Assembly (NCBI GenBank): GCA_015064965.1
Contig: SVRG01000004.1
Coordinates: forward strand, 1 to 58,436
Direction of reading: 5' to 3'
DNA length: 58,436 nucleotides
DNA from: Oscillospiraceae bacterium
GTDB taxonomy: Bacteria > Bacillota > Clostridia > Oscillospirales > CAG-272
The notes under the pieces were generated by a model. It had not been told where the DNA came from, searched no databases, and saw only the letters and a program-made list of their open reading frames with translations. Both the position numbers and the translations under genes were made by a program. The stretch's first letter is position 1, and every line of letters starts with the position of its first letter. Below, piece after piece: positions 6,533 to 43,627 of the stretch.

Positions 6533-8278
6533 ATGAAAAAAAGTACAATTGGTATCTTGCTTGTTTTTGTTTGCGCATGCATCTTCACCTGCGTTGCATT
6601 TGCGGCGGAAGACTGCATGACGTTTCAAAACTATGGCATTTACAAAACAGAGGAGCCGCTTGATGTGATTCCTGCAACTTATGAGGCATGGGTAAAAATC
6701 CCCGAGGGACGAACCGCTTCTTCAGGAATTGTTATGTCTAATGCACACTCGAGTGTGTATCCGTCATTCAGTATTTATGTATATACAAACGGCGCACCTA
6801 TCTTGAAATTTTTGAATAAGACTTCGGACGGGGATTACAGAGAGCAGAAAACATATACTTTTAGCAAAGTAAACCTTGCAACTGGAAAATGGGAACATCT
6901 TGCTTTTGTTCATGATACTGAAAGTGGATATGTTTACTGTTATGTAAACGGTGAACTTGCAGAAACACAGAAAATCTCATTTGAACCCATACTTTCACCT
7001 ATTCCTTTTGTGCTCGGTGGATCTGATACTTCCGGCAACGAGGATTATTTTAAGGGAGCTTTACGTAGCGCAACTCTTTATTCTGATGCTCGCTCTGCTG
7101 ATGAAATTAAAGCCGATATGGTATCGGTTGATGTGACTGACGAAAATCTTTTGGTGCATTATGATCTTACAAAGGCCGAGTGGGGAAAGGACATTCCCGA
7201 TGTGGCAGGCAATCAGGATATGATTTACAATCAATATTGGTATGACGAGGCACCTGCACTTCCCGAATACGCATATTCCATTGCGGTAATCGGTGACCAA
7301 CAGACACAGCTTTACAGATTTTCTGACACACTTCACTTTACATACGATTGGCTGCTCGCAAACAAGGATACAAAGAAAATCGGTTACGTTGTAAACGTAG
7401 GTGACTATACGCAGACGATAGCAGGAAAAACATCAGAATTTGAACTTGCAATTTCGCAATTTAAACGCCTTGCCGGAAAACTTCCTTTAATCGTAGCAAG
7501 AGGTAATCACGATTTACCCGCATATCACAATCAGTATTTGAATTATACGGGTTATACTTCGGATATTGTCGGAAAATATAATGACGAACTTGTTGATATT
7601 TATAAGACTGCGAGAATAGGCGATACGGACTATCTTTTTATCACTTTGGATTATGGACCTACTGATGAAGAAATTGCATGGGCGAACAAAGTTACCGAAG
7701 AGCATCCAAATCATAAGGTTATTGTCGTAACACATAGTTATATGTGGGAAGATGGCACTACTACCGATGAAAATGATGGAGCATCTCCTTCTTTGCACGG
7801 TTATCCTAACAATGGAAAAACACTTTGGGAGAAGTATGTTTCAAAGCACGAAAATATCGTGCTTGTGCTTTCGGGACATATTGATTCCGACTTTATCCGT
7901 GCTACCAAGGCGGTTGGCGAGAATGGCAACGTTGTTACACAAATGCTTATAGATCAGCAGGGTGTTGACCTTGATGTGCCCACAGGTCTTGTTTGCATGC
8001 TCTATTTCAGCGAGGACGGTAATATTGTAAATACACAGTATTATTCTACTGTGAGAAGACAGTATTTCCGCATTGAAGATAACAACTATACAATGTATCT
8101 CGGCGAGCGTAGCGGAGATTGCAACGGCGACGGTACTATTACCGTAGCAGATGCAATTGCGGCAATTTCGTCGGCAATGGGAGGCGAGATAAATAAGAAT
8201 GCAGACGTTAACGGTGACGGAAAAGTTACCTTAAATGATGCACTTGTCATCATGCAGACGGTGGCGAAAGGAGAATAA
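6533..8278 (+). CDS. Secreted LamG + metallophosphoesterase + dockerin protein (paralog of 1-1806)
   Basis: Signal peptide ending AFA; WEHLAFV..YVNGE LamG segment; GDQQ, GDY, GNHD, VTHS, SGH; dockerin loops GDCNGDGTITVADA and DVNGDGKVTLNDA. Confidence 0.88.
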   Translation: MKKSTIGILLVFVCACIFTCVAFAAEDCMTFQNYGIYKTEEPLDVIPATYEAWVKIPEGRTASSGIVMSNAHSSVYPSFSIYVYTNGAPILKFLNKTSDGDYREQKTYTFSKVNLATGKWEHLAFVHDTESGYVYCYVNGELAETQKISFEPILSPIPFVLGGSDTSGNEDYFKGALRSATLYSDARSADEIKADMVSVDVTDENLLVHYDLTKAEWGKDIPDVAGNQDMIYNQYWYDEAPALPEYAYSIAVIGDQQTQLYRFSDTLHFTYDWLLANKDTKKIGYVVNVGDYTQTIAGKTSEFELAISQFKRLAGKLPLIVARGNHDLPAYHNQYLNYTGYTSDIVGKYNDELVDIYKTARIGDTDYLFITLDYGPTDEEIAWANKVTEEHPNHKVIVVTHSYMWEDGTTTDENDGASPSLHGYPNNGKTLWEKYVSKHENIVLVLSGHIDSDFIRATKAVGENGNVVTQMLIDQQGVDLDVPTGLVCMLYFSEDGNIVNTQYYSTVRRQYFRIEDNNYTMYLGERSGDCNGDGTITVADAIAAISSAMGGEINKNADVNGDGKVTLNDALVIMQTVAKGE

Positions 8279-8280
8279 TA

Positions 8281-11200
8281 ATGCGTAGAATAATATTTTC
8301 AATATGTATTTTTGCACTTGCAGTTTCGCTTTCACTTTTTGCAGGTGCGGCTCAAATAGGCAGTGCTGATGAACTGCTCACGCTTATGAACACGCCTGCT
8401 ATGTGGGCAAATGATTATACGCTTACCGCAGATATAAATCTTTCGGATGCCACAAACGGACTTTCGCAAGCACCTATCGGCAGCGAGAGTATACCGTATA
8501 GCGGCACCTTTGACGGTGACGGCTATACAATAAGCGGCATCAATATCAGCGGTGCCGGAAATGTTGCATTGTTCGGTTTCGCAGGCGGCGCAACTATTAA
8601 GAATTTGACGGTAGACGGCACAGTTTCTTCTACTACCAACTGGGCGGCGGGTATTATTGCAAGAGTTTCGGCGGCAAGTATTACTGTAGAAAACTGTGTA
8701 AACCGTTGTACAGTAAGCGGCGTTGACTCTGTCGGCGGCATCGTGGGCAGACTTGAGCCAGGCTCACTAAACGCTACTATAAGCGGTTGTAAAAACGAAG
8801 GCACAATTACTGCTGCCCGTTACAGTGGCGGTATTGTGGGCTTCAGCTCACAGACAAGCGGTGCTACTGTTATTGAAAAATGCTGGAATGACGGTATTGT
8901 TAACGGTACACAGGGCGTAGCCGGTATTGTCGTATTTTTCAGAGTATATACAGGTTCAAGCGGCAAGTGTTATGTGCAGGACTGTATAAACACAGGTAAA
9001 GTTCATGCGACAACTGCATACGCAGGCGGTATTCTTGGCTGGGGACACAACAAGAATTTTGCATATACGGTAACACGTTGCTTTAACGGCGGTTCTGTTA
9101 CTTCTGATAAGGCATCATATGTTCGTCCGATAGCAGGAGTTATTTCCAAGGCGACCTATACCGCCGGTAACATGAACGCTTGCTACTACACAACTACCGA
9201 TGCATATACCTCCGAGAGCGATTGCTATGCAAATCTCTGTGAAACTTTTGTTGCAGATGCAACTGTAGCGACCACACTCACAGGACTTGGCGAAAACTTT
9301 GTAGTTGCTGATGGCTATGCACCTCAGCTTAAAAACTTCCATACACATGACTATAAATACAGCGCTATAGGCGCAGAGCATGAGTACGCTTGTTATTGCG
9401 GCGATGTTTCTCTTACAGAGGAACATACCTTTGTTGACGGCGTGTGCGATAAGTGCGGAGCCGAGGACATTCCTTGTGCGCACGATAACAAGTACGAGAT
9501 TGTTGAAAATGCAGCAACTTGCGCTTCGGTAGGCAGCAAATATGAATTTTGTCCCGATTGCCAAACCAAAGTGAGCGGAGATATTGAAATTGCTATTGAT
9601 GCAAATAATCATAGCGGCACTTTGACTATGGTGCTTGAAAACGGTGCACTTACATATATCTGTTCGGATTGTGATGCAGCAGCGTATACAGACAGTGCAC
9701 TTCTTGACACAGTTTATGTTTCACAAACCGGTGCAGAGCTTAAAGGAAACGTTTCGTCACAGATCGGTACAAGTGCAAATCCTTTCAAAAACTTTACCGA
9801 TGCTATGCAGTATGCGGCACTTGTGGGTAAGGATGTAACCGTTACAATTCTGGATACTGCAGAGGTTCCTGAAAAATATCATACGCCCGAATTTGAAAGC
9901 ACTGTTACTGTAACGGGCGGCACGCTTATTACGCATACCCGTTTCATAATGCACGGACCGATGGTGTTTGAGCATATTTGCTTTAAGGACAGCGGCAATC
10001 CCTTTATTGCGGCTCAGGAACACAAAGTCGTAATGGGAGAGGGAATCACCGTTTCAGGCGGAGGTATTTATCTTGTAGGCGGCTACGAAAACGGAACTGC
10101 CACGAACAGCGATATTCCCTCTACAGGATATTCCACGGATGTAACTGTACGCTCAGGTGTGTATCACGGAATTGCAGGTGCAAACCGTTATCTTGGCGGT
10201 GCATATTCCGGTACAGTCAAAGTAGTTCTTGGTAAGACTAACCCGAGTGATACACTTAAAATTACAAGCACTCTTGCTGTAGTAGGATTTAATTCCGAGG
10301 GCGGAGATGGTGTAAATGCAACGTTCATCTTTGAAGGTAACGTAGATGAGATTGCAAGTTTTTGCCCGATAAGCCATGCGAGCAATGCAACAGGTCGCTT
10401 TGATATTGATATCGTTGTACGCGGCGGTGCTGCTTTGGATAAAACCAAAGTCATCTATCGTGGAGCCAATGCGACTGTTAACGTGTATTCCGATTCCCGC
10501 ATAGAGGGTGCGGATGAACTTGCGGCAACTATAACGGATGCAGATAAAGTTCAGCCTTACAAACGCTATTGCCTCAAAGTAAACGGAGAGCATCCGGATG
10601 CAAATTCAGACGGTATTTGTGATAATTGCGGCGCTTCTACCGCTTGTGAGCATATTGACGGCGAGTGGCAGGAAACCATGTCGGCAAACTGTGCAGATAA
10701 GGCTGTTTATACCTGGTATTGCTATGACTGCAAAGAACTTGTCAATGACATGACCAAAGAGGGCGAAGCTCCCGACGCTGACAATCATGTAGCAGATAGT
10801 TTTGTATGGAACAATGACGGCGAAAAGTATTACTTTGTCTGCAATTCTTGCGGTGCCAAAGTGGAACAGACCGATGCTCCTTCGGTTTATGTATCTTCAA
10901 GCGGCAGTGATAAAAATGATGGCAGAACTGCAGAAAAAGCAGTGAAGACGCTTGCAGAAGCAGTAACGCGCATTGCAAATGTTGGTGGCAAGATTGTAAT
11001 TGTTTCCAACTACACTCTTGATGGAGACGTTGTACTTCCTGCATATACAAAGCCTATTTCTTTTGTTGGCTACGATGCAGATGACGGATATGTTCCCGGC
11101 GGTTTTACGGCATCGGCAAATGTTGTAATTTCTCTCGGCGGCAAAACAAGCTTCGAGGATATCACATTTGCAGGCGGCAAGCGTTATACAATCGTTGCAA

Positions 11201-12663
11201 ATTGGAACGACATCACTTTTGGAAGAGTTTATTCGTTAAGCGATTCATATTCCTATGTTGTTCTTGGCGGATACCCGATAACCGAGAGTGACAATGAGGC
11301 AAAGTCGGCTACACTTACAATTAAAGAAGATGTAACCCGTGCACGCACGCTTGACGGAACGGTTACAAGAGACCGTTTCTATACACGCATTTATCTCGGA
11401 AGCGTTTTCGGTGCTGATAATATCGGCGTTGCAAATAAGAGTGCTACACTTACTGCCACAAATGCAGATATCGGTGTGCTTTATACAATGTCTACATCCG
11501 GCTCGCATAAGCTTACCACAGCAAAAAACTGTGAAACTACAGTAAATCTTTATGGCAGAGCAACTGTAAATCAGGGTAGAACCGGCGACTACAACGTGGC
11601 GTATGCTACATCTAAGGGTTCACAGAAAAACTTAACATTGAATTTGTTTGATAATTCCGCAATTCTTACGAATTATTATATTCGAAACTGCGAGAATACT
11701 GTAATCAACGTTTCCACCAAGGCTGACGGAAGAACATTTATGATTGATATTCCGTTTACCTTCTATGCATTCGGCGACTTTGCGGCAAACGGTACGGCTA
11801 TTAATGTTGAAATCAACTACGGTGAGCACGGTTTTGCTCCTTCACTTGATACGCCTTGTGTGTTTGTCGATTCGGCAGATGAAATTAAGATTTATGAGGC
11901 TAATGCTGTCGAGGAGTGCGAATACGTTGAGAGTATAGCTCATGCGGCAACTCCAAAAGAAAAAGGAATGAAGCATTATTCCTGCACTTGCGGTAGATAC
12001 TACGATGAAGAATATGAGTATTCCTGCGAAGAAGCAACGCACATTTATACTGCATATGCAGACGGTACTTTTAAGTGCTCTGTATGTGAGAAAACCTTTA
12101 CAACACTCAGCGAAAATCTTGTTGTTAAAGCAACTTCTATAGCGGTTGCTGACGGAAAAGCAAGTGTAAATGTAAATATTACCGGTACATTTGCGGCAGC
12201 ACTTGTAAGTATTACTGCTCCTGAAGGATTTGAGCTTGCAGATGCAACACTTGCTGAAAATGCAGAACTCGTGTTTGCAGGCAATGAAGCAGACAGTGAA
12301 TATTATCTCACCGTTATGAGTGCGAGCGGTGCAGATAGAGAAATTAACGAAACGTTTGTTTTAACATATTCTGTGGCTGATTCCACTGCATATGGAAGTT
12401 ATATTCTTGACGTTGTTGCATCAGAGGTTTACAATGCAACCGGTGAAGCGCTTTGTATGACTCCCGTAAGTGCGGAAATCGTATATGCAGAAGAAACAGT
12501 TATAGGAGATGTGGACGGTGACGGTATTGTTACAGTTGCAGATGCTCTTGCAATTATCAGAGCATTGCTTGATGATATCAGTTTGCCTAATGCAGATCTT
12601 AACGGCGACGGCAAATTAGGTCTTTTCGATGTAATCAGAGCAATCAAGTTAATAGCGCAGTAA
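8281..12663 (+). CDS. Large secreted multidomain protein: GLUG/beta-helix repeats, Cys/His ribbons, cohesin-like module, dockerin
   Basis: Signal peptide; FDGDGYTISG and VGGIVG/CxNxG repeats; two VYVS..G..G....P.K beta-helix caps; CxH..CxxC linkers; beta-rich module at ~12115-12486; dockerin from 12505. Confidence 0.8.
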   Translation: MRRIIFSICIFALAVSLSLFAGAAQIGSADELLTLMNTPAMWANDYTLTADINLSDATNGLSQAPIGSESIPYSGTFDGDGYTISGINISGAGNVALFGFAGGATIKNLTVDGTVSSTTNWAAGIIARVSAASITVENCVNRCTVSGVDSVGGIVGRLEPGSLNATISGCKNEGTITAARYSGGIVGFSSQTSGATVIEKCWNDGIVNGTQGVAGIVVFFRVYTGSSGKCYVQDCINTGKVHATTAYAGGILGWGHNKNFAYTVTRCFNGGSVTSDKASYVRPIAGVISKATYTAGNMNACYYTTTDAYTSESDCYANLCETFVADATVATTLTGLGENFVVADGYAPQLKNFHTHDYKYSAIGAEHEYACYCGDVSLTEEHTFVDGVCDKCGAEDIPCAHDNKYEIVENAATCASVGSKYEFCPDCQTKVSGDIEIAIDANNHSGTLTMVLENGALTYICSDCDAAAYTDSALLDTVYVSQTGAELKGNVSSQIGTSANPFKNFTDAMQYAALVGKDVTVTILDTAEVPEKYHTPEFESTVTVTGGTLITHTRFIMHGPMVFEHICFKDSGNPFIAAQEHKVVMGEGITVSGGGIYLVGGYENGTATNSDIPSTGYSTDVTVRSGVYHGIAGANRYLGGAYSGTVKVVLGKTNPSDTLKITSTLAVVGFNSEGGDGVNATFIFEGNVDEIASFCPISHASNATGRFDIDIVVRGGAALDKTKVIYRGANATVNVYSDSRIEGADELAATITDADKVQPYKRYCLKVNGEHPDANSDGICDNCGASTACEHIDGEWQETMSANCADKAVYTWYCYDCKELVNDMTKEGEAPDADNHVADSFVWNNDGEKYYFVCNSCGAKVEQTDAPSVYVSSSGSDKNDGRTAEKAVKTLAEAVTRIANVGGKIVIVSNYTLDGDVVLPAYTKPISFVGYDADDGYVPGGFTASANVVISLGGKTSFEDITFAGGKRYTIVANWNDITFGRVYSLSDSYSYVVLGGYPITESDNEAKSATLTIKEDVTRARTLDGTVTRDRFYTRIYLGSVFGADNIGVANKSATLTATNADIGVLYTMSTSGSHKLTTAKNCETTVNLYGRATVNQGRTGDYNVAYATSKGSQKNLTLNLFDNSAILTNYYIRNCENTVINVSTKADGRTFMIDIPFTFYAFGDFAANGTAINVEINYGEHGFAPSLDTPCVFVDSADEIKIYEANAVEECEYVESIAHAATPKEKGMKHYSCTCGRYYDEEYEYSCEEATHIYTAYADGTFKCSVCEKTFTTLSENLVVKATSIAVADGKASVNVNITGTFAAALVSITAPEGFELADATLAENAELVFAGNEADSEYYLTVMSASGADREINETFVLTYSVADSTAYGSYILDVVASEVYNATGEALCMTPVSAEIVYAEETVIGDVDGDGIVTVADALAIIRALLDDISLPNADLNGDGKLGLFDVIRAIKLIAQ

Positions 12664-20088: not shown

Positions 20089-21108
20089 TTACAACCATTT
20101 TGCAATCTCTATGAGCGCTTTGCGTGAGGACACGCCGAGCTTGCTGTAGAGATTTTTATTATGGAATTTGAGCGTATTTTCCTTTATATTCAGCGTAGCC
20201 AGAATTTCCTTGGTGGATTTGCCTTCAAGATAGAGATCATATATTGCTTTTTCGGTTGGGGTCAGCGTTTTCAGCCCTTGTACAAACAACTTCTGTTGCT
20301 CGATAAGCTCTTTTGTGGGCTTGATTTCGGGTGCTTGCGGTTCGGGCATGGGTGTGGCAAACAACTTTTCGCCGTCCTGAATTATCAGATACAGCCCAAG
20401 CAAAAAAATCTCGCTGATGATATATGATACAGAGAGGAATTCAAAATCAATTCTGACAAGCTGCTCAAGCAGCCAGACACCGAGGTTTGCAAATACGGCG
20501 GCTGCGAGAAAAACCGCCTGTATATGTGACGGAACACTCTTTTTTATTGCCGCGTGTAAAATGGCGGCAACCATTGCGGCAAAATATGCAAGCAGAAAGA
20601 CGAGATAGATCACATGCCACGGGCCGTACACTTTTTCAAGTACGGAGACACCGTTTACATTTTGCAAATAAACTTCCTTATAATAGATATCCGAGTATCC
20701 GGGACTTGCCGCAACAAAGAACACAAACAGGCTGATGCAAACGAGCAGATATGGCAGCCACTTGATATATCGCAAGCGACATACTTTTACGATAGTCAAT
20801 AGCATTGCCAAGGGTAAAAAGACCGAGCCGAGGTAGGAAACTCTGTTTGCCATAAGCGCGCCGTCAAGCGTAGTTGCCTTGGCAAGCGAAAGATAGCCGA
20901 TGTTGACTATCACTGCAGACGTAAAAAGCACCATCAGCCAAAACTCTTTTTTGCGAATAAGTGTAAGGTATCCAACCAGCATCAAAATGGAAAGAAGCGT
21001 TGTGACAACATAAACCGCTGACATATCCATTGCTTTGCCGCCGACGGCGGAGCATCCTGCAAAAAAGCAAAGAGGAAGTAACGCGGCACTACCGAAAATC
21101 TTCTTCAT
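20089..21108 (-). CDS. Membrane-integral 7TM sensor fused to a LuxR-type HTH regulator
   Basis: About 7 TM segments resembling HisKA_7TM; C-terminal LTPTEKAIYDLYLEGKSTKEI..IKENTLKFHNKNLYSKLGVSSR. Start moved to MKKIFG after AAGGAG. Confidence 0.88.
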   Translation of the reverse strand: MKKIFGSAALLPLCFFAGCSAVGGKAMDMSAVYVVTTLLSILMLVGYLTLIRKKEFWLMVLFTSAVIVNIGYLSLAKATTLDGALMANRVSYLGSVFLPLAMLLTIVKVCRLRYIKWLPYLLVCISLFVFFVAASPGYSDIYYKEVYLQNVNGVSVLEKVYGPWHVIYLVFLLAYFAAMVAAILHAAIKKSVPSHIQAVFLAAAVFANLGVWLLEQLVRIDFEFLSVSYIISEIFLLGLYLIIQDGEKLFATPMPEPQAPEIKPTKELIEQQKLFVQGLKTLTPTEKAIYDLYLEGKSTKEILATLNIKENTLKFHNKNLYSKLGVSSRKALIEIAKWL

Positions 21109-21149
21109 AAATCGCTCTCCTTGAAACAATTTACCTGTAAAACCCAAAA

Positions 21150-21220
21150 ACCACACCGTTTCCCACACTTTTTGCGCTAAAAACGGCGGCATCCCACACT
21201 TTTATTTTGCCTTTGTGTGG
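21150..21220. promoter_or_regulatory. Candidate LuxR operator repeats
   Basis: TCCCACACTTTT at 21161 and 21192 (31-bp spacing), CCACAC at 21151 and inverted GTGTGG at 21215. Confidence 0.5.
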
Positions 21221-21422
21221 CGACTTTGGGCTATTTTGTAATTTAATATTAAATTAAAGGGTATAGAAGGATGGTATATAACCTTGCCTTGTAAAAAGGG
21301 GTACCCCATTTACAAATTCATGTAAATGTCTCTGTGGCGCGCCAACGAAACAGAGACCGCCCCTAATAATTATAATTATATATTAACATAAATATATAGT
21401 TAAGTCAACGGAGGTATCCAAA

Positions 21423-24400
21423 ATGAAAAAACTTGGCAGAGTTTTGATTATGTGCCTGCTTGTCTTTTTGCTTGCCTTTACGGTGGTTGCAGAAGACGGC
21501 GACAACTGTATGTACTGCGGTGCATATCGCTTTGGCGATTGGCTTTGCGAATGCGGTCTTTGCAGCATTGAGGCAGAGCCCGCGGATTGCTGGGCAGCAA
21601 CGCACTGCTGGGAATGCGGTGCTTGCTTTAACACACGTTCCAAATTCTGCACCGAATGCCATCTTTGCGACGATTGCTACGTCGGCGAGGCATACCATTG
21701 CATGGGCTGTGAGGAGTGCTATGCCGGCGACCAGGATGCGCTATGCAGCATATGCTGGTTCTGTGAGAGCTGCGCCGGCGCATTATGTGATGATTGCGGC
21801 CGTTGCGAGAGCTGTCAGGAGTTTGAAGGCGGTGTGCATTGCCCCGAGTGCGGCTACTGCTATAACGCATACGGCGCATGCGAGGAAGATGGCGCCGAGC
21901 ACTGCAAGGAATGCTGCCTGCCTTGCGAAAAATGCGAGCGATGCGTTTTCGATGACGGTCTTGAACTCTGTGATGAATGTAATGCCTGCGAGGAATGCTG
22001 TGAGGCAGAAGCACAGAGTGAGGGCTGTGAGTGCGGCGAATACTGCGTGGAAGGCTCCGATTGGTATGACCATATCTGCCTTGACTGCGGAACTCCGTTT
22101 TGCGCAATAGAGCAATGCGATATCTGCGAGGTATGCCTTGACTGTTGCGAAGGAAACTCCGATTGCAGCGAGGGGCTTTGCGTAATGGACGATGAATATG
22201 ACGAGCATTTCTGCCTTGACTGCGGCGCGTGTTTCCATGATGTAGACGTATGCGAGATATGCTATGGTAACGGCGAGCTTCGCTGCGAGGACTGCTGCCG
22301 TATGTATGCCGAGGATGAAGGCTGCGATTGCGGTGACACCTGCGTGAGCGACCCTGACTTTGATATGCATGTTCTCACTGAGCATTCAAATGGCGGCGAA
22401 CACAGTGCAAAGCCGCAGAACACATGGTCATTTGACGAGACCTATCACTATGTGAGCTGCCGCTACTGCGACAGTGCGGCACACCTCACTGCAAAGGCAA
22501 AGCACACGCTTAACAAGTACGATATCTGTACAGTTTGCGGCTACAACACCAACACAAAGATACTTGTTCTTTCTCAACCGCAGAGCAGAGTTGTAAGCGT
22601 AAGCGATAATGAAGCAGATGCCGGCGACCCCTATAACATCGAGGACAACAAGGTTTCGTTTTCCGTTTTTGCCAAAGGAACAAGCAAACTCAGCTACCAG
22701 TGGTACGAAAGATACGGAAACGGAAAGTGGACGGCACTTGAGGACAATACATCCTCGTGGAACAATGGCAAAAAGTTCAACACCGTTCACGGTGCAAAGA
22801 CCGAAAAACTGACGATTTCTGTTCCGACGACGGTTTGCTATGGTGAGAACTCTTACCGTTGCGAGATTAAGGATGAGGACGGAAATACCGTATATTCTGC
22901 CGAAGCGTCTATTTTTTCCAAGCACATTTATAAAGAGTGTACCTACTATAAGGGCGCGCTGATTGGCATTATCCATCAGCCTAATAAGAATAACAACATC
23001 GGTGTGTATGAAAGCAAAGTACATGAAATAATCTGTCTTGGTGACGGCTGCGAGGCGGTAAAGGAATTGCCCCACAACTTCGGCAAGGCAGAGGGCGAGG
23101 TTACGGATAGCGTTGACGGCAGCGTATGGACAAAGTTCACCTGCCGTGACTGCGGATTTACTACACATATAAAGAATCACGACCACTATTTCTTCGATAA
23201 AGAAACAGGCGAGTGCGTGGTGGATTACACCTATAAAAACGGCACACAGCACCGTCTTAAGTGCCTCTATGACGGCTGTACCAAGACTACCTTGGAGAGC
23301 CACACATGGCTTGCATGGGGTAATCAGGGAACACCTCATACCGCATCAAACGGCATTGGCGCGCCGTACAAGGAATGCAGTCTTTGCTCCTATACCACAA
23401 CAGAGAAGCCGATGCGATTTGACAGCGTAAAAGAGGAGAACATTGCAACTGATTGGACAAAGTCAAATGACCTTGTATATGTACAGTACGGTCACGCATC
23501 AAGCGATATTTATGTTATGGGCGACAGTATTGAGATCACCTTTGCCCCCACTGTCAACGATAAAAACGATTACATCAAGATCAACAATCCGAGATGCCTT
23601 GCTTTCCGCGTATACTATAGCGGAAACGGCGTGAGTGACCTTGATGTAACGGGCTACGCAACCTCGGTAAAGCTTGAGGGCGAGCCAAAGTGGACTTTTA
23701 TTATCAAGAGCTTTAAGGAATACACAGGCGGCGGTATCTTCACATTTATCCCTGCAATTGATAAAGCCGAGTGTAAGCATCAAAGCGGCACAAGAATCTT
23801 CGGCGCATACAAGCCTGTCTGCGTAAAGGACGGCTACACCGGTGACCTTTGCTGCTGCGATTGCGGTTATGTTGTAAAATACGGTGAAACTATCGAGGGC
23901 GGCAAAGAGCATACAGGCACTCTCACACTTATTAAGAGCACTGTAGTAAAAGCAACATGCGAACAGCGCGGATACGAAGGCTCATACAAATGCTCGCATT
24001 GTGGCATGGTGGTTATGGGTGATACCACACCGAGACAGCATACGGGCAAGATAACCGTTAAAAATGCAAAATCGGCTACCTGTTTTGACTTTGGTTACAC
24101 AGGCGACACCTACTGCTCATGCGGCGACCTTGTAAAAGAGGGCAAACTCATAGCACCTACACATACCAAACTTCAGACACTTAACTATAAAGAGGCAAAC
24201 TGCCAGCATGACGGCTATACAGGCGATATAAAGTGTGCAGTGTGCGGAATTTATGTAAAATACGGCTACACGCAAAAGGGCACAGAGCATGCATTCTCCG
24301 TTTGGAAAGCACAGGACGGAGTAAATCACAGAAGCTACTGTACGGTAAGCGGATGTAACGAATTTAAAGTTGAGCCGCATACGGATGCTGACCGTGACCT

Positions 24401-25424
24401 TGTTTGCGATATATGCTCTTACTCTTTAGGCGAGGACGGAGAGTATATTTCGCTCATCTCTCTCAGTGTTACCGCTCCCGAAATCGGTGCAAAGGCTGAT
24501 TATACCAAATTTGATACCAAGCGTTTCTACAGTGATAATCTCGGTGACCGCTCAGGAAAGTATACGGACGGTATAAGCTGGATAAATGTTGAAACAGGCA
24601 AGAAAGTCAGCGTATTTGAAGAGGGCGGCGTTTATAAGCTTACCGTTTGCTTCAGAAGTAAAGAAAACTATTCCTTTACCGAAAATCTCACTGCCACCGT
24701 CAACGGTTCTGTAGCAGTTGCAGAGTATCTTGGTGCTGATTTTGCAAGCATTGAGTACACATTCCAAAAGCTTGGCCACGCTCATGATTACATCCTGATG
24801 CGTAACGAAAGCAGCCACCACTATGAGTGTCTTGTTTGCGGAGATGCAAAGGATGCAGGCAACCATGTGTTTGATGCAAACGGACGTTGCAAGAGCTGTG
24901 GCTACAACAAGAGCAACAATAACCCGTTTACCGACGTTAAGGCAAGCGATTACTTCTTTGATGCGGTGATGTGGGCAAAGGATACAGGCCTTACCGTAGG
25001 TACAACGGCGACTACCTTCTCGCCAAATGAAACATGTACAAGAGCGCAGGGAATAACATTCCTTTGGCGTGCGGCAGGCAAACCCGAACCCAAGTATTCT
25101 TCACCGTTTGTGGATGTAAAAGCCTTTACCGACGTAAAAGAGAGCGACTATTTTTACAAAGCAGTGTGCTGGGGCGTTGAACAGGGAATTATCGTGGGCA
25201 CATCCGCAACAACCTTTACGCCTCACCAGACCTGCTCAAGTGCGCACATTATGACAATGCTTTTCCGCGCAATGAAGATCGGCACTAACGGCTGGTACGA
25301 GGAAGCAAGGGATTGGGCAAAGAAAGAGGGACTCCTCAACGGAACAAAATTTGTTGTTTCTCCCGATGAGCCTTGTCCGAGAGCGGGAATTGCGTATTTC
25401 CTCTATATGTTTTACGAGAAATAA
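21423..25424 (+). CDS. SLH-anchored surface protein with an extremely Cys-rich N-terminal domain, Ig-like domain and Cys/His repeats
   Basis: Signal peptide; about 63 Cys in aa 29-307 (manual count); Ig-like SQPQS..SYQWY..YRCEI; ATC..GYTGD..C..CG repeats; C-terminal SLH (PFTDVKASDYFFDAV, FSPNETCTRAQ). Confidence 0.88.
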   Translation: MKKLGRVLIMCLLVFLLAFTVVAEDGDNCMYCGAYRFGDWLCECGLCSIEAEPADCWAATHCWECGACFNTRSKFCTECHLCDDCYVGEAYHCMGCEECYAGDQDALCSICWFCESCAGALCDDCGRCESCQEFEGGVHCPECGYCYNAYGACEEDGAEHCKECCLPCEKCERCVFDDGLELCDECNACEECCEAEAQSEGCECGEYCVEGSDWYDHICLDCGTPFCAIEQCDICEVCLDCCEGNSDCSEGLCVMDDEYDEHFCLDCGACFHDVDVCEICYGNGELRCEDCCRMYAEDEGCDCGDTCVSDPDFDMHVLTEHSNGGEHSAKPQNTWSFDETYHYVSCRYCDSAAHLTAKAKHTLNKYDICTVCGYNTNTKILVLSQPQSRVVSVSDNEADAGDPYNIEDNKVSFSVFAKGTSKLSYQWYERYGNGKWTALEDNTSSWNNGKKFNTVHGAKTEKLTISVPTTVCYGENSYRCEIKDEDGNTVYSAEASIFSKHIYKECTYYKGALIGIIHQPNKNNNIGVYESKVHEIICLGDGCEAVKELPHNFGKAEGEVTDSVDGSVWTKFTCRDCGFTTHIKNHDHYFFDKETGECVVDYTYKNGTQHRLKCLYDGCTKTTLESHTWLAWGNQGTPHTASNGIGAPYKECSLCSYTTTEKPMRFDSVKEENIATDWTKSNDLVYVQYGHASSDIYVMGDSIEITFAPTVNDKNDYIKINNPRCLAFRVYYSGNGVSDLDVTGYATSVKLEGEPKWTFIIKSFKEYTGGGIFTFIPAIDKAECKHQSGTRIFGAYKPVCVKDGYTGDLCCCDCGYVVKYGETIEGGKEHTGTLTLIKSTVVKATCEQRGYEGSYKCSHCGMVVMGDTTPRQHTGKITVKNAKSATCFDFGYTGDTYCSCGDLVKEGKLIAPTHTKLQTLNYKEANCQHDGYTGDIKCAVCGIYVKYGYTQKGTEHAFSVWKAQDGVNHRSYCTVSGCNEFKVEPHTDADRDLVCDICSYSLGEDGEYISLISLSVTAPEIGAKADYTKFDTKRFYSDNLGDRSGKYTDGISWINVETGKKVSVFEEGGVYKLTVCFRSKENYSFTENLTATVNGSVAVAEYLGADFASIEYTFQKLGHAHDYILMRNESSHHYECLVCGDAKDAGNHVFDANGRCKSCGYNKSNNNPFTDVKASDYFFDAVMWAKDTGLTVGTTATTFSPNETCTRAQGITFLWRAAGKPEPKYSSPFVDVKAFTDVKESDYFYKAVCWGVEQGIIVGTSATTFTPHQTCSSAHIMTMLFRAMKIGTNGWYEEARDWAKKEGLLNGTKFVVSPDEPCPRAGIAYFLYMFYEK

Positions 25425-42541: not shown

Positions 42542-43627
42542 ATGGCAAAAAAACTTAACGGCACAGTTATAGTTACATACCGATGCAATGCAAAATGCAC
42601 CATGTGCAACAGATATAAGGTTCCGTCAAAGCCGGAGGACGAGCTTTCGATCGAAACCATAAAAAAGCTCCCTGAAATGTATTTTACAAACATCACGGGC
42701 GGCGAACCCTTTATGCGCGAGGACCTCAAAGATGTTGTTCGCGAGCTTTATAAAAAGAGCGAAAGAATTGTTATTTCCACAAACGGATTTTATACCGACA
42801 GAATCGTGGATCTTTGCAAGGAGTTTCCGAATATCGGTATCAGAATTTCCATTGAGGGACTTGAGAAGACCAACAACGAGATACGCGGACTTGAGGACGG
42901 ATTCAACCGCGGCTACACCACGCTTAAAACCCTGGTTGAGATGGGGATGAAGGACGTTGGCTTTGGCATGACCGTTCAGGATAAAAACGCTCCCGACCTT
43001 GTTGCACTTTACAACATTTCCGACGAGATGGGTATGGAGTTTGCCACGGCATCTTTGCACAACAGCTTCTACTTCGTGGAGTCGAATAATATCATTCATG
43101 ACCGTCTTATGGTGGCGCAGAACTTTGAGGATCTTGTAAACAGACTGCTTGAGTCAAACAGCCCTAAAAAGTGGTTCCGCGCATACTTCAACCACGGACT
43201 TATAAATTACATATTCAGTCAAAAGCGTCTGCTCCCATGTGACATGAGCTTTGACACATTCTTTATTGATCCGTTTGGCGATGTTATGCCATGTAACGGC
43301 ACTAAAGAAAAGGAAGTTATGGGCAATCTCAATGAGCAAACATGGGATGAGCTCTGGAACAGCGAAGCGGCAGAAATCGTGCGCAAAAAGGTTCGCGCTT
43401 GCGACAGAAACTGTTGGATGATAGGCTCCGTGTCGCCCGCTATGCATAAATACATATTGACGCCCGCACTTTGGGTGATCAAGCACAAATTCCTTTCTTT
43501 CGGCAAGAAAAAGAAATATTCGATGTACGAAAATAAAATCGTGCGCGACTATCGCGACGGCAAGGTTTCAAAAGAAGAACTTGATGCTTGCTCAACCTGC
43601 GAGGGATGCGCGGTGGAACGTGTATAA
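42542..43627 (+). CDS. Radical SAM/SPASM protein
   Basis: CNAKCTMC (CxxxCxxC), TGGEP, STNG; SPASM-like PC..IDPFGDVMPC..MGNL..C..NC. Confidence 0.92.
   Translation: MAKKLNGTVIVTYRCNAKCTMCNRYKVPSKPEDELSIETIKKLPEMYFTNITGGEPFMREDLKDVVRELYKKSERIVISTNGFYTDRIVDLCKEFPNIGIRISIEGLEKTNNEIRGLEDGFNRGYTTLKTLVEMGMKDVGFGMTVQDKNAPDLVALYNISDEMGMEFATASLHNSFYFVESNNIIHDRLMVAQNFEDLVNRLLESNSPKKWFRAYFNHGLINYIFSQKRLLPCDMSFDTFFIDPFGDVMPCNGTKEKEVMGNLNEQTWDELWNSEAAEIVRKKVRACDRNCWMIGSVSPAMHKYILTPALWVIKHKFLSFGKKKKYSMYENKIVRDYRDGKVSKEELDACSTCEGCAVERV

Follow-up and report, generated by a model that had tools for sequence, protein, structure and literature searches.

A conserved cysteine- and histidine-rich head, a candidate array of metal sites, on an SLH-anchored surface protein of gut Clostridia

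Giardia's variant-specific surface proteins (VSPs) and the CxxC proteins of other protists are exported to the cell surface in an intestinal habitat and carry repeated CxxC motifs. When VSPs are exposed to metal chelators or reductants they turn protease-sensitive, and metal restores their resistance, according to one account (PMC6341118). Here we describe a bacterial domain with the same outward features, which contains 32 CxxC motifs in 279 amino acids (aa). It is encoded on contig SVRG01000004.1 of the Oscillospiraceae bacterium assembly GCA_015064965.1, within the 58,436 nucleotides (nt) that were analyzed as a whole and that we call the window, and it forms the N-terminal head of a 1333-aa surface protein. 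Judged from its sequence, the head is a real conserved domain and not a region of low complexity. We hold it to be probable, with moderate confidence, that about nine duplicated units are arrayed in tandem in it and build tetrahedral Zn(Cys/His) sites, so forming a rigid distal head on an immunoglobulin-like (Ig-like) stalk. This assessment draws on conservation and on a predicted model.

We regard the VSPs as the nearest functional analogue, one that offers a workable comparison for a coat, protective or adhesive, which metal cross-links hold together. By sequence, the head is unrelated to the VSP family PF03302, since it matches 0 Pfam families at E ≤ 10. The protease-resistant stalk and the protist likeness that an initial annotation, made by a model from the letters of the window, had proposed are reasonable as analogies, while membership of PF03302 does not hold. 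The Cys content of VSPs is about 12%, and the 22.6% of the head is about twice as high. Unlike in the VSPs, His is an integral conserved ligand in the head. VSPs form a switching repertoire, whereas the head gene is bacterial and present in one copy in its own genome. Finally, the VSP anchor is described in the same account as a transmembrane helix that has a conserved tail in the cytoplasm (PMC6341118), while the head family uses SLH, dockerin or choline-binding anchors, with SLH in the present case.

The gene and its product are laid out as follows, with all positions given for the window:

21410–21414, + strand: Shine–Dalgarno sequence GGAGG, 8 nt before the ATG at 21423 (from reading the sequence)
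21423–25424, + strand: open reading frame (ORF) of 1333 aa
21423–21491, + strand: putative Sec-type signal peptide, residues 1–23 (MKKLGRVLIMCLLVFLLAFTVVA, then ED; from reading the sequence)
21507–22403, + strand: Cys/His-rich acidic head, residues 29–327, about nine tandem units
22404–24917, + strand: conserved stalk, residues 328–1165, with Ig-like/beta-sandwich domains and small invariant His/Cys modules
23814–24302, + strand: four tandem modules of about 40 aa within the stalk, residues 798–960 (from the translation and alignment columns)
24924–25424, + strand: C-terminal SLH wall-anchor region and stop codon

The domain had initially been placed at 21507–22343, which is in frame and corresponds to residues 29–307. 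We moved this limit from residue 307 to 327 to take in the conserved His316, His321 and His327. The leader shows the sequence MKK..R, a hydrophobic core and a cleavage region VVA/ED, all read from the translation and not by a predictor. Homologs open with the same type of leader, followed by a conserved mature end, [DA][YW]EDG. At the other end of the protein, the Pfam model SLH (PF00395) is matched in two stretches from residue 1168 with an E-value of 1.2e-17 (64 bits versus a cut-off of 20.8), and the family profile run against the PDB matches the SLH domains of Sap and SbsB.

Residues 29–307 contain 63 Cys in 279 aa (22.6%), 68 Asp and Glu (24.4%), 9 Lys and Arg and 8 His, and have a pI of 4.05. 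The annotated acidic domain of about 280 aa with about 63 Cys, or about 22%, is indeed there. It also includes 27 aromatic residues (13 Tyr, 9 Phe and 5 Trp). Successive Cys follow each other as C-x2-C in 32 of the 62 gaps, while 10,000 shuffled versions of this stretch had 8.4 ± 2.7 and at most 19, which confirms the CxxC periodicity that had been noticed. As runs, we counted 32 CxxC, 16 CxxCxxC and 6 CxxCxxCxxC, and both strings that had been quoted as examples were recovered, at residues 61–85 and 92–117. When we compared all 280-aa segments of the own genome (2.06 Mb, 79.7% complete; 1813 ORFs of at least 150 aa), the head proved to be the one with the most Cys, the next one having 35.

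In order to analyze conservation, 228 family proteins were aligned to the domain profile, of which the 125 with full coverage were used for the columns. A column was taken as a ligand column if Cys or His occupies it in at least half of the 125 sequences, in the numbering of residues 29–327. This gave 75 Cys/His columns, and in 62 of them Cys or His reaches at least 90%. The mean identity of the 125 homologs to the present protein is 94% at the Cys/His columns and 29% elsewhere, and the present protein keeps 72 of the 75 ligand residues. Units are led by seven conserved His, at positions 61, 92, 139, 160, 217, 262 and 316. The about six His-led units that had been described are in this respect roughly right, while the pattern quoted for them is exact in two units only. 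Six columns mix Cys and His among the 125 homologs:

Column 42: 105 Cys, 15 His
Column 165: 99 Cys, 10 His
Column 204: 67 Cys, 7 His, also Asp, Glu and Ser
Column 217: 10 Cys, 107 His
Column 272: 16 Cys, 73 His
Column 303: 94 Cys, 21 His

Because a swap between Cys and His is tolerated for a metal ligand and not for a disulfide partner, these mixed columns favour metal ligands. We also observed that ligands are lost in sets. His34 and His36 are jointly absent from 48 sequences (individually from 49 and 50), and Cys51 is also lost in 29. The present protein has Ala34, Arg36 and Ala51 at these positions, and thus probably lacks one site that most of its relatives possess.

The head appears from these alignments to consist of about nine related units, which measure about 30 aa in its first half and 45–54 aa in the second. 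Running hhalign on nine sub-alignments of the head, with scores that composition may inflate, gave a probability of 98.7 for unit 217–261 (U8) versus unit 262–315 (U9), of about 98 for 183–216 versus the second half of these same two units, and of 97.3 for unit 61–91 (U2) versus unit 92–121 (U3). Additionally, whole units are gained or lost between homologs. One protein (P0038) has an extra H-C-x2-C-x2-C-x7-C-x2-C-x2-C-x2-C block, another (P0073) a 45-residue Cys/His insert, and a third (P0076) is without residues 219–262. From the relationship of the units in the profile comparison, together with the gain and loss of whole units, we infer a tandem array made by duplication.

Several points weigh against metal sites as the basis of the fold. 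The 72 ligand residues would be enough for up to 18 four-coordinate sites, but this figure is arithmetic on these residues and not a structural count, and the hhalign scores of short Cys-rich profiles may owe part of their height to composition, as said. No match to DSBA, DsbB or VKOR was found in the own genome, but this genome is incomplete, and an oxidase may have been missed. Furthermore, some Clostridia encode working DsbA/VKOR homologues (PMC12453122), and the Giardia VSPs are reported to use metal and/or disulfide cross-links (PMC6341118). The last three points speak at the same time for a disulfide-knotted head, in which dense intramolecular (perhaps also intermolecular) disulfides would hold the domain together in the manner of EGF-, TNFR- or VSP-like repeats, and metal would be inessential. 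The domain is extracellular, and Cys-rich extracellular repeats elsewhere are usually disulfide-bonded. Nevertheless, we consider such a knot unlikely. The six columns that swap Cys and His and the seven His columns in register with Cys do not fit it, nor does the odd number of 63 Cys. C-x2-C, which makes up 32 of the 62 gaps, is a spacing that metal knuckles and redox pairs typically show and structural disulfides do not. The lack of oxidase matches in the own genome counts against it as well, and the hosts are anaerobes of the gut and rumen, a reducing habitat. Since both kinds of cross-link are reported for the VSPs, the metal and the disulfide reading are not mutually exclusive.

A model of residues 24–346, computed with AlphaFold2 from 33 aligned sequences, reached a mean predicted local distance difference test (pLDDT) score of 90.5 and a predicted template modelling (pTM) score of 0.65. 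It consists of coil with short helices; the last CxxC of a unit is where several of these helices start, a habit known from zinc fingers. Foldseek found no match to this head model among solved structures at E ≤ 1e-3, the best E-value being 0.086. Most of the weak structural rows are zinc modules, namely the C2H2 arrays of ZFP568 and CTCF, LIM, PHD, RING, CHY, the zinc-binding domain (ZBD) of ClpX, FYVE and zinc-ribbon ribosomal proteins, and a few are U-boxes, which bind no metal. We read this share of zinc modules as a tendency of the predicted model, not as a match. The tetrahedral metal sites formed from His and Cys that the initial annotation had in mind fit these observations, that is, the co-conserved columns, the six swaps, the high pLDDT and the predominance of zinc-finger rows.

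By analogy, the eukaryotic intracellular multi-zinc modules seem to be chemically nearest to the head. The treble clefs of LIM, RING, PHD and CHY/Pirh2 share with it the H/C-x2-C-x2-C runs and the short helices at the last CxxC, and in such modules consecutive CxxC pairs serve neighbouring zinc ions. Treble-clef zinc fingers also resemble the head in having conserved sets of Cys and His that tolerate exchange (75 columns here, six of them mixed); in contrast to these likenesses, the head gives no profile match to LIM, RING or PHD (Pfam, E ≤ 10). A further likeness exists to the Zn(Cys)4 lobe of medium-chain alcohol dehydrogenases, whose C-x2-C-x2-C-x7-C spacing recurs here from Cys62 to Cys76. 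The single-sequence search of the PDB indeed returned one 36-residue match, to 5fi3 (tetrahydroalstonine synthase), but this match is short, single and non-significant (E 0.04), and the head has no dehydrogenase fold or domain. The head is also not a DnaJ cysteine-rich domain, as it contains one CxxCxGxG versus the four required and has no Pfam match.

Metallothioneins resemble the head in their extreme Cys content and in their CxxC and CC strings. They are small, essentially without aromatics or His, and without a fixed fold when metal-free. The head, in contrast, measures 280–300 aa, has conserved His (8 His in all) and 27 aromatics, is predicted to be ordered and forms part of a 1333-aa wall protein; it is not a member of this group and gives no match to Pfam metallothionein models at E ≤ 10. 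This comparison bears on a surface metal sponge, another of the functions initially suggested, in which the domain would capture, store or detoxify Zn, Cu, Cd or another thiophilic ion like a tethered metallothionein or a zincophore. The very high ligand density and the strong acidity (pI 4.05; 68 Asp/Glu versus 9 Lys/Arg) would suit this function, and wall-located zinc-binding proteins modulate zinc import in Corynebacterium diphtheriae (PMC12445094). A sponge is possible, yet we think it improbable. The ligand register is fixed across the 125 homologs and the fold is predicted to be well ordered, which points to structural sites. The aromatic residues are unexpected for a sponge, and so is the constant fusion to one conserved stalk, seen in 79 of 80 loci; the gene is single-copy in its genome, and we saw no metal-uptake, efflux, Zur-type or other metal-homeostasis genes among the 38 window ORFs scanned.

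If the head does bind metal, zinc is the likeliest ion, because the leader implies Sec export in the unfolded state, Zn(Cys/His)4 sites self-assemble, and a loose Tat-like motif occurs in only 2 of the 228 family members. The Sec-type leader and the rarity of Tat-like motifs speak against an extracellular redox wire, in which the Cys clusters would carry Fe–S centres and pass electrons outward, since cofactor-loaded Fe–S proteins are exported folded through Tat. For such a wire one can cite the dense CxxC runs in an anaerobe and two CxxCxxCxxxC strings in the head, at residues 183 and 232. As the initial annotation had noted, however, the ferredoxin motif CxxCxxCxxxCP is absent (count 0 in the head) and only one CxxCH exists. 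It lies at Cys76, and its His80 is outside the conserved Cys/His columns of the family. The head is neither a ferredoxin-type 4Fe–4S protein nor a multihaem c-type cytochrome by these counts, and no Fer4-type or cytochrome Pfam family matched at E ≤ 10. Conserved His and Cys/His swaps are atypical of 4Fe–4S sites, and among the 38 window ORFs we saw no electron-transfer genes. The Fe–S or redox wire that had been suggested is thus disfavoured, and of the alternatives we consider it the weakest and very improbable.

Taken together, an array of metal sites fits best because Cys and His are conserved jointly, swap with each other, are lost in sets and sit in a domain predicted to be ordered. Metal binding itself, zinc as the ion, the number of sites and the biological role we infer from these observations. 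In our model, the protein would be a Sec-exported, SLH-anchored fibrillar surface protein of gut Clostridia with the head at its N-terminal, cell-distal end. After export, the 72 ligand residues would enclose metal ions in tetrahedral sites, up to about 18 ions in all and most likely Zn2+, which corresponds to one site per 16–17 residues. The metal–thiolate cross-links would replace disulfides, which would be neither made nor stable in the reducing habitat, and the resulting head would be compact and rigid, very acidic and probably resistant to proteases. The Ig-like stalk with its smaller His/Cys modules would hold this head away from the wall. That the head sits at the tip and is fused to anchors of many kinds suggests a role in binding, like that of an adhesin, or in shielding, a suggestion which comes only from position and architecture.

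The head belongs to a family that we were able to trace in further proteins. A word-indexed search with residues 24–320 gave 257 candidates of 733–2333 aa, of which 107 pass at E ≤ 1e-3. An exhaustive phmmer search of 1.84 billion cluster representatives found 148 of them at E ≤ 1e-3, a number that falls to 98 with a limit of 1e-10 and to 37 with one of 1e-30. Among the proteins listed, the Cys-rich region sits N-terminally, behind a signal-peptide-like leader, in large surface proteins. It usually has 60–70 Cys in about 310 aa, while in expanded forms the number of Cys rises to about 80, to about 100 and to as many as 177. The few names given to homologs in the source data are “S-layer homology domain-containing protein”, “hypothetical protein” and “leucine-rich repeat protein”. 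Their C-termini vary and include, by precomputed Pfam assignments, SLH, dockerin, choline-binding repeats, CW_binding_2, Flg_new, fn3, BspA-type leucine-rich repeats and Big_2. Since the C-terminal parts differ between homologs, head and stalk look like conserved cargo, which every host attaches to an anchoring system of its own.

No described family accounts for this domain in the databases that we searched, so the match to a well-characterised family that the initial annotation had named as grounds for its refutation did not appear. Pfam gave no match for the head, either in the scan of the whole protein or with the domain alone at E ≤ 10, and NCBIfam gave none as well. The family-profile search of the PDB returned SLH proteins only and no relative of the head. 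In the ESM Atlas, the best score of 0.81 belongs to an unnamed cluster and is too low to be taken as anything beyond a lead. We found no description of the head domain family in the literature covered, which excludes subscription journals. The head family, its Cys density and its extracellular bacterial setting are not so far known, while zinc-knuckle chemistry and CxxC surface proteins are known.

In a scan of one genome per species, 95 of 105 pattern matches encode a relative, and 80 were kept as loci. The loci come from metagenome-assembled genomes of gut and rumen that are labelled Clostridia, Oscillospiraceae, Ruminococcaceae, Acutalibacteraceae and Lachnospiraceae, and three of them from cultured isolates, Flintibacter porci, Hominimerdicola aceti and Pseudoruminococcus massiliensis. 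The homolog of Flintibacter porci is an ORF of 1736 aa with an SLH end; that of Pseudoruminococcus massiliensis has 1422 aa and closes with a hydrophobic helix and a basic tail. The Hominimerdicola aceti homolog (locus L048, 7887–9578) has only 563 aa, stops within the stalk and is apparently truncated, which may reflect a frameshift, a pseudogene or an assembly error. The gene is patchy. Among 300 other genomes that were sampled in the same order, 2 carry it at E ≤ 1e-10, and of 17 genomes of the same family none does. A paralogue search of the own genome showed a single copy.

The stalk travels with the head. Residues 321–1160 accompany it in 79 of the 80 loci. The initial annotation had missed that the domain forms a single conserved family and that it is joined to a conserved stalk of about 850 aa, whose anchors can be swapped. 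The AlphaFold2 model of the stalk (pLDDT 74.7) is nearly all beta. Foldseek returned 143 PDB matches for it at E ≤ 1e-3, all of them multi-Ig or beta-sandwich surface proteins, among them GhpA, titin, DSCAM, SbsB (4aq1) and EA1 (8opr), and none of these structure matches contained an enzyme-like domain. SbsB, Sap and EA1 resemble the present protein in combining an SLH anchor with a string of beta-sandwich domains, but in contrast to them its SLH domains are C-terminal. We know of no Cys/His-rich head or small His/Cys modules in any of these three.

At least nine further small His/Cys modules are found in the stalk. The motif H-x3-C-x4-C-x7-H occurs at residues 534, 610 and 969, and H-x3-C-x2-C...H...C-x2-C at residues 342 and 1132; both are invariant across homologs. 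Residues 798–960 comprise four modules of the form C-x3-GY[TE]G-x3,4-C-x1,2-C-G...H, each with three Cys and one His, and their Cys, Gly and His columns are conserved in the family alignment. None of these His/Cys modules has a Pfam model in the scan of the whole protein. By their motifs they look like a second and a third type of extracellular mini metal site.

Exported proteins without any Cys make up about 70% in aerobic and 33% in anaerobic Firmicutes, according to one survey (PMC2823432). Because exported Firmicutes proteins are usually Cys-poor, an exported head with 22.6% Cys is a striking exception. One may speculate that it founds a class of extracellular poly-zinc domains in bacteria, and that gut anaerobes systematically rigidify their exports by zinc–thiolate knuckles and not by disulfides, with a possible role in sensing oxidants; we regard this wider idea as tentative and rather doubtful. 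The additional His/Cys modules of the stalk would fit the use of zinc–thiolate in place of disulfides. With about one ion per 16–17 residues and up to about 18 per domain, the head would, if the reading is true, be the densest structural-metal array known to us.

Should the head bind metal as proposed, bacteria would be using zinc-finger chemistry outside the cell in a new way. A further consequence would possibly be a sizeable surface-bound pool of zinc in gut and rumen Clostridia, with a bearing on the competition for metal in the gut. For Pfam and structural biology, the head is an uncatalogued domain family with a confident model and no relative in the PDB. A compact, disulfide-free and possibly protease-resistant scaffold of this kind might serve for display in reducing environments. 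The cultured carriers Flintibacter porci and Pseudoruminococcus massiliensis make the question testable at the bench.

Two genes flank the Cys-rich gene directly:

20089–21192, − strand: divergent membrane regulator with a seven-transmembrane (7TM) sensor region and a LuxR/GerE helix-turn-helix
25434–28304, + strand: SLH/Ig protein of 956 aa, which begins 10 nt past the stop codon

The regulator matches the Pfam families HisKA_7TM (E 5.9e-15) and GerE (E 1e-13). In 19 of the 64 loci whose upstream flank extends for 1600 nt or more, a homolog of it is divergently placed no more than 2.5 kb upstream of the Cys-rich gene. Since oxidants destroy zinc–thiolate sites, the head could conceivably act as an oxygen- or oxidant-sensitive element that is read by this adjacent regulator. 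Between the two genes, at 21330–21359, lies an inverted repeat, GTCTCTGT ... ACAGAGAC, with 8-bp arms and a 14-nt spacer, which may be an operator or a hairpin of the 5′ untranslated region.

The downstream 956-aa gene is probably co-transcribed with the Cys-rich gene. Its Pfam matches are SLH, Ig_3 and GTP_EFTU_D2. The last one, a beta-barrel like EF-Tu domain 2, stays below the cut-off (E 1.8e-6) and is odd for a surface protein, and the EF-Tu rows of NCBIfam, with E-values of about 1e-8, are far below their cut-offs as well. This protein is kept downstream only in the four closest loci (L002–L005; 66–86% identity), and we therefore rejected a role as dedicated partner as a feature of the family.

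Elsewhere in the window, dockerin proteins and a large polysaccharide-synthesis cluster are encoded. Two paralogous proteins that combine Laminin_G_3 with a calcineurin-like phosphoesterase are encoded at 94–1806 and 6533–8278, one of them with a dockerin, and a 1460-aa dockerin protein without any other Pfam domain follows at 8281–12663. As SLH and dockerin proteins are both present, the organism has both SLH and cohesin–dockerin display systems. A radical-SAM/SPASM gene (42542–43627) is located among the glycosyltransferases of the polysaccharide cluster. We considered it as a Cys-modifying enzyme and rejected it, since it lies 17 kb downstream and does not appear among the neighbours near homologs, for which eight flanking proteins were tested.

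Finally, the gene is carried in four faecal metagenome runs (X3–X6), not counting the two runs that may be its source, together with a second form of the head region at 21374–22201 that shares about 92% nucleotide identity over 21487–22066. None of the 24 runs listed for the gene was an RNA run. Among the 40 of 45 differences that were listed, 35 codons are changed, 22 synonymously and 13 non-synonymously. In the 6 Cys codons that differ, the change is always a synonymous one between TGT and TGC, and none of the non-synonymous changes in this list concerns a Cys or a conserved His. The second form also has a different 5′ end, with 110 other letters in place of 21375–21486, and its contig ends near 22170/22201. 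It probably stems from a co-resident related strain or species, and may perhaps encode P0003, a protein with 91% identity.

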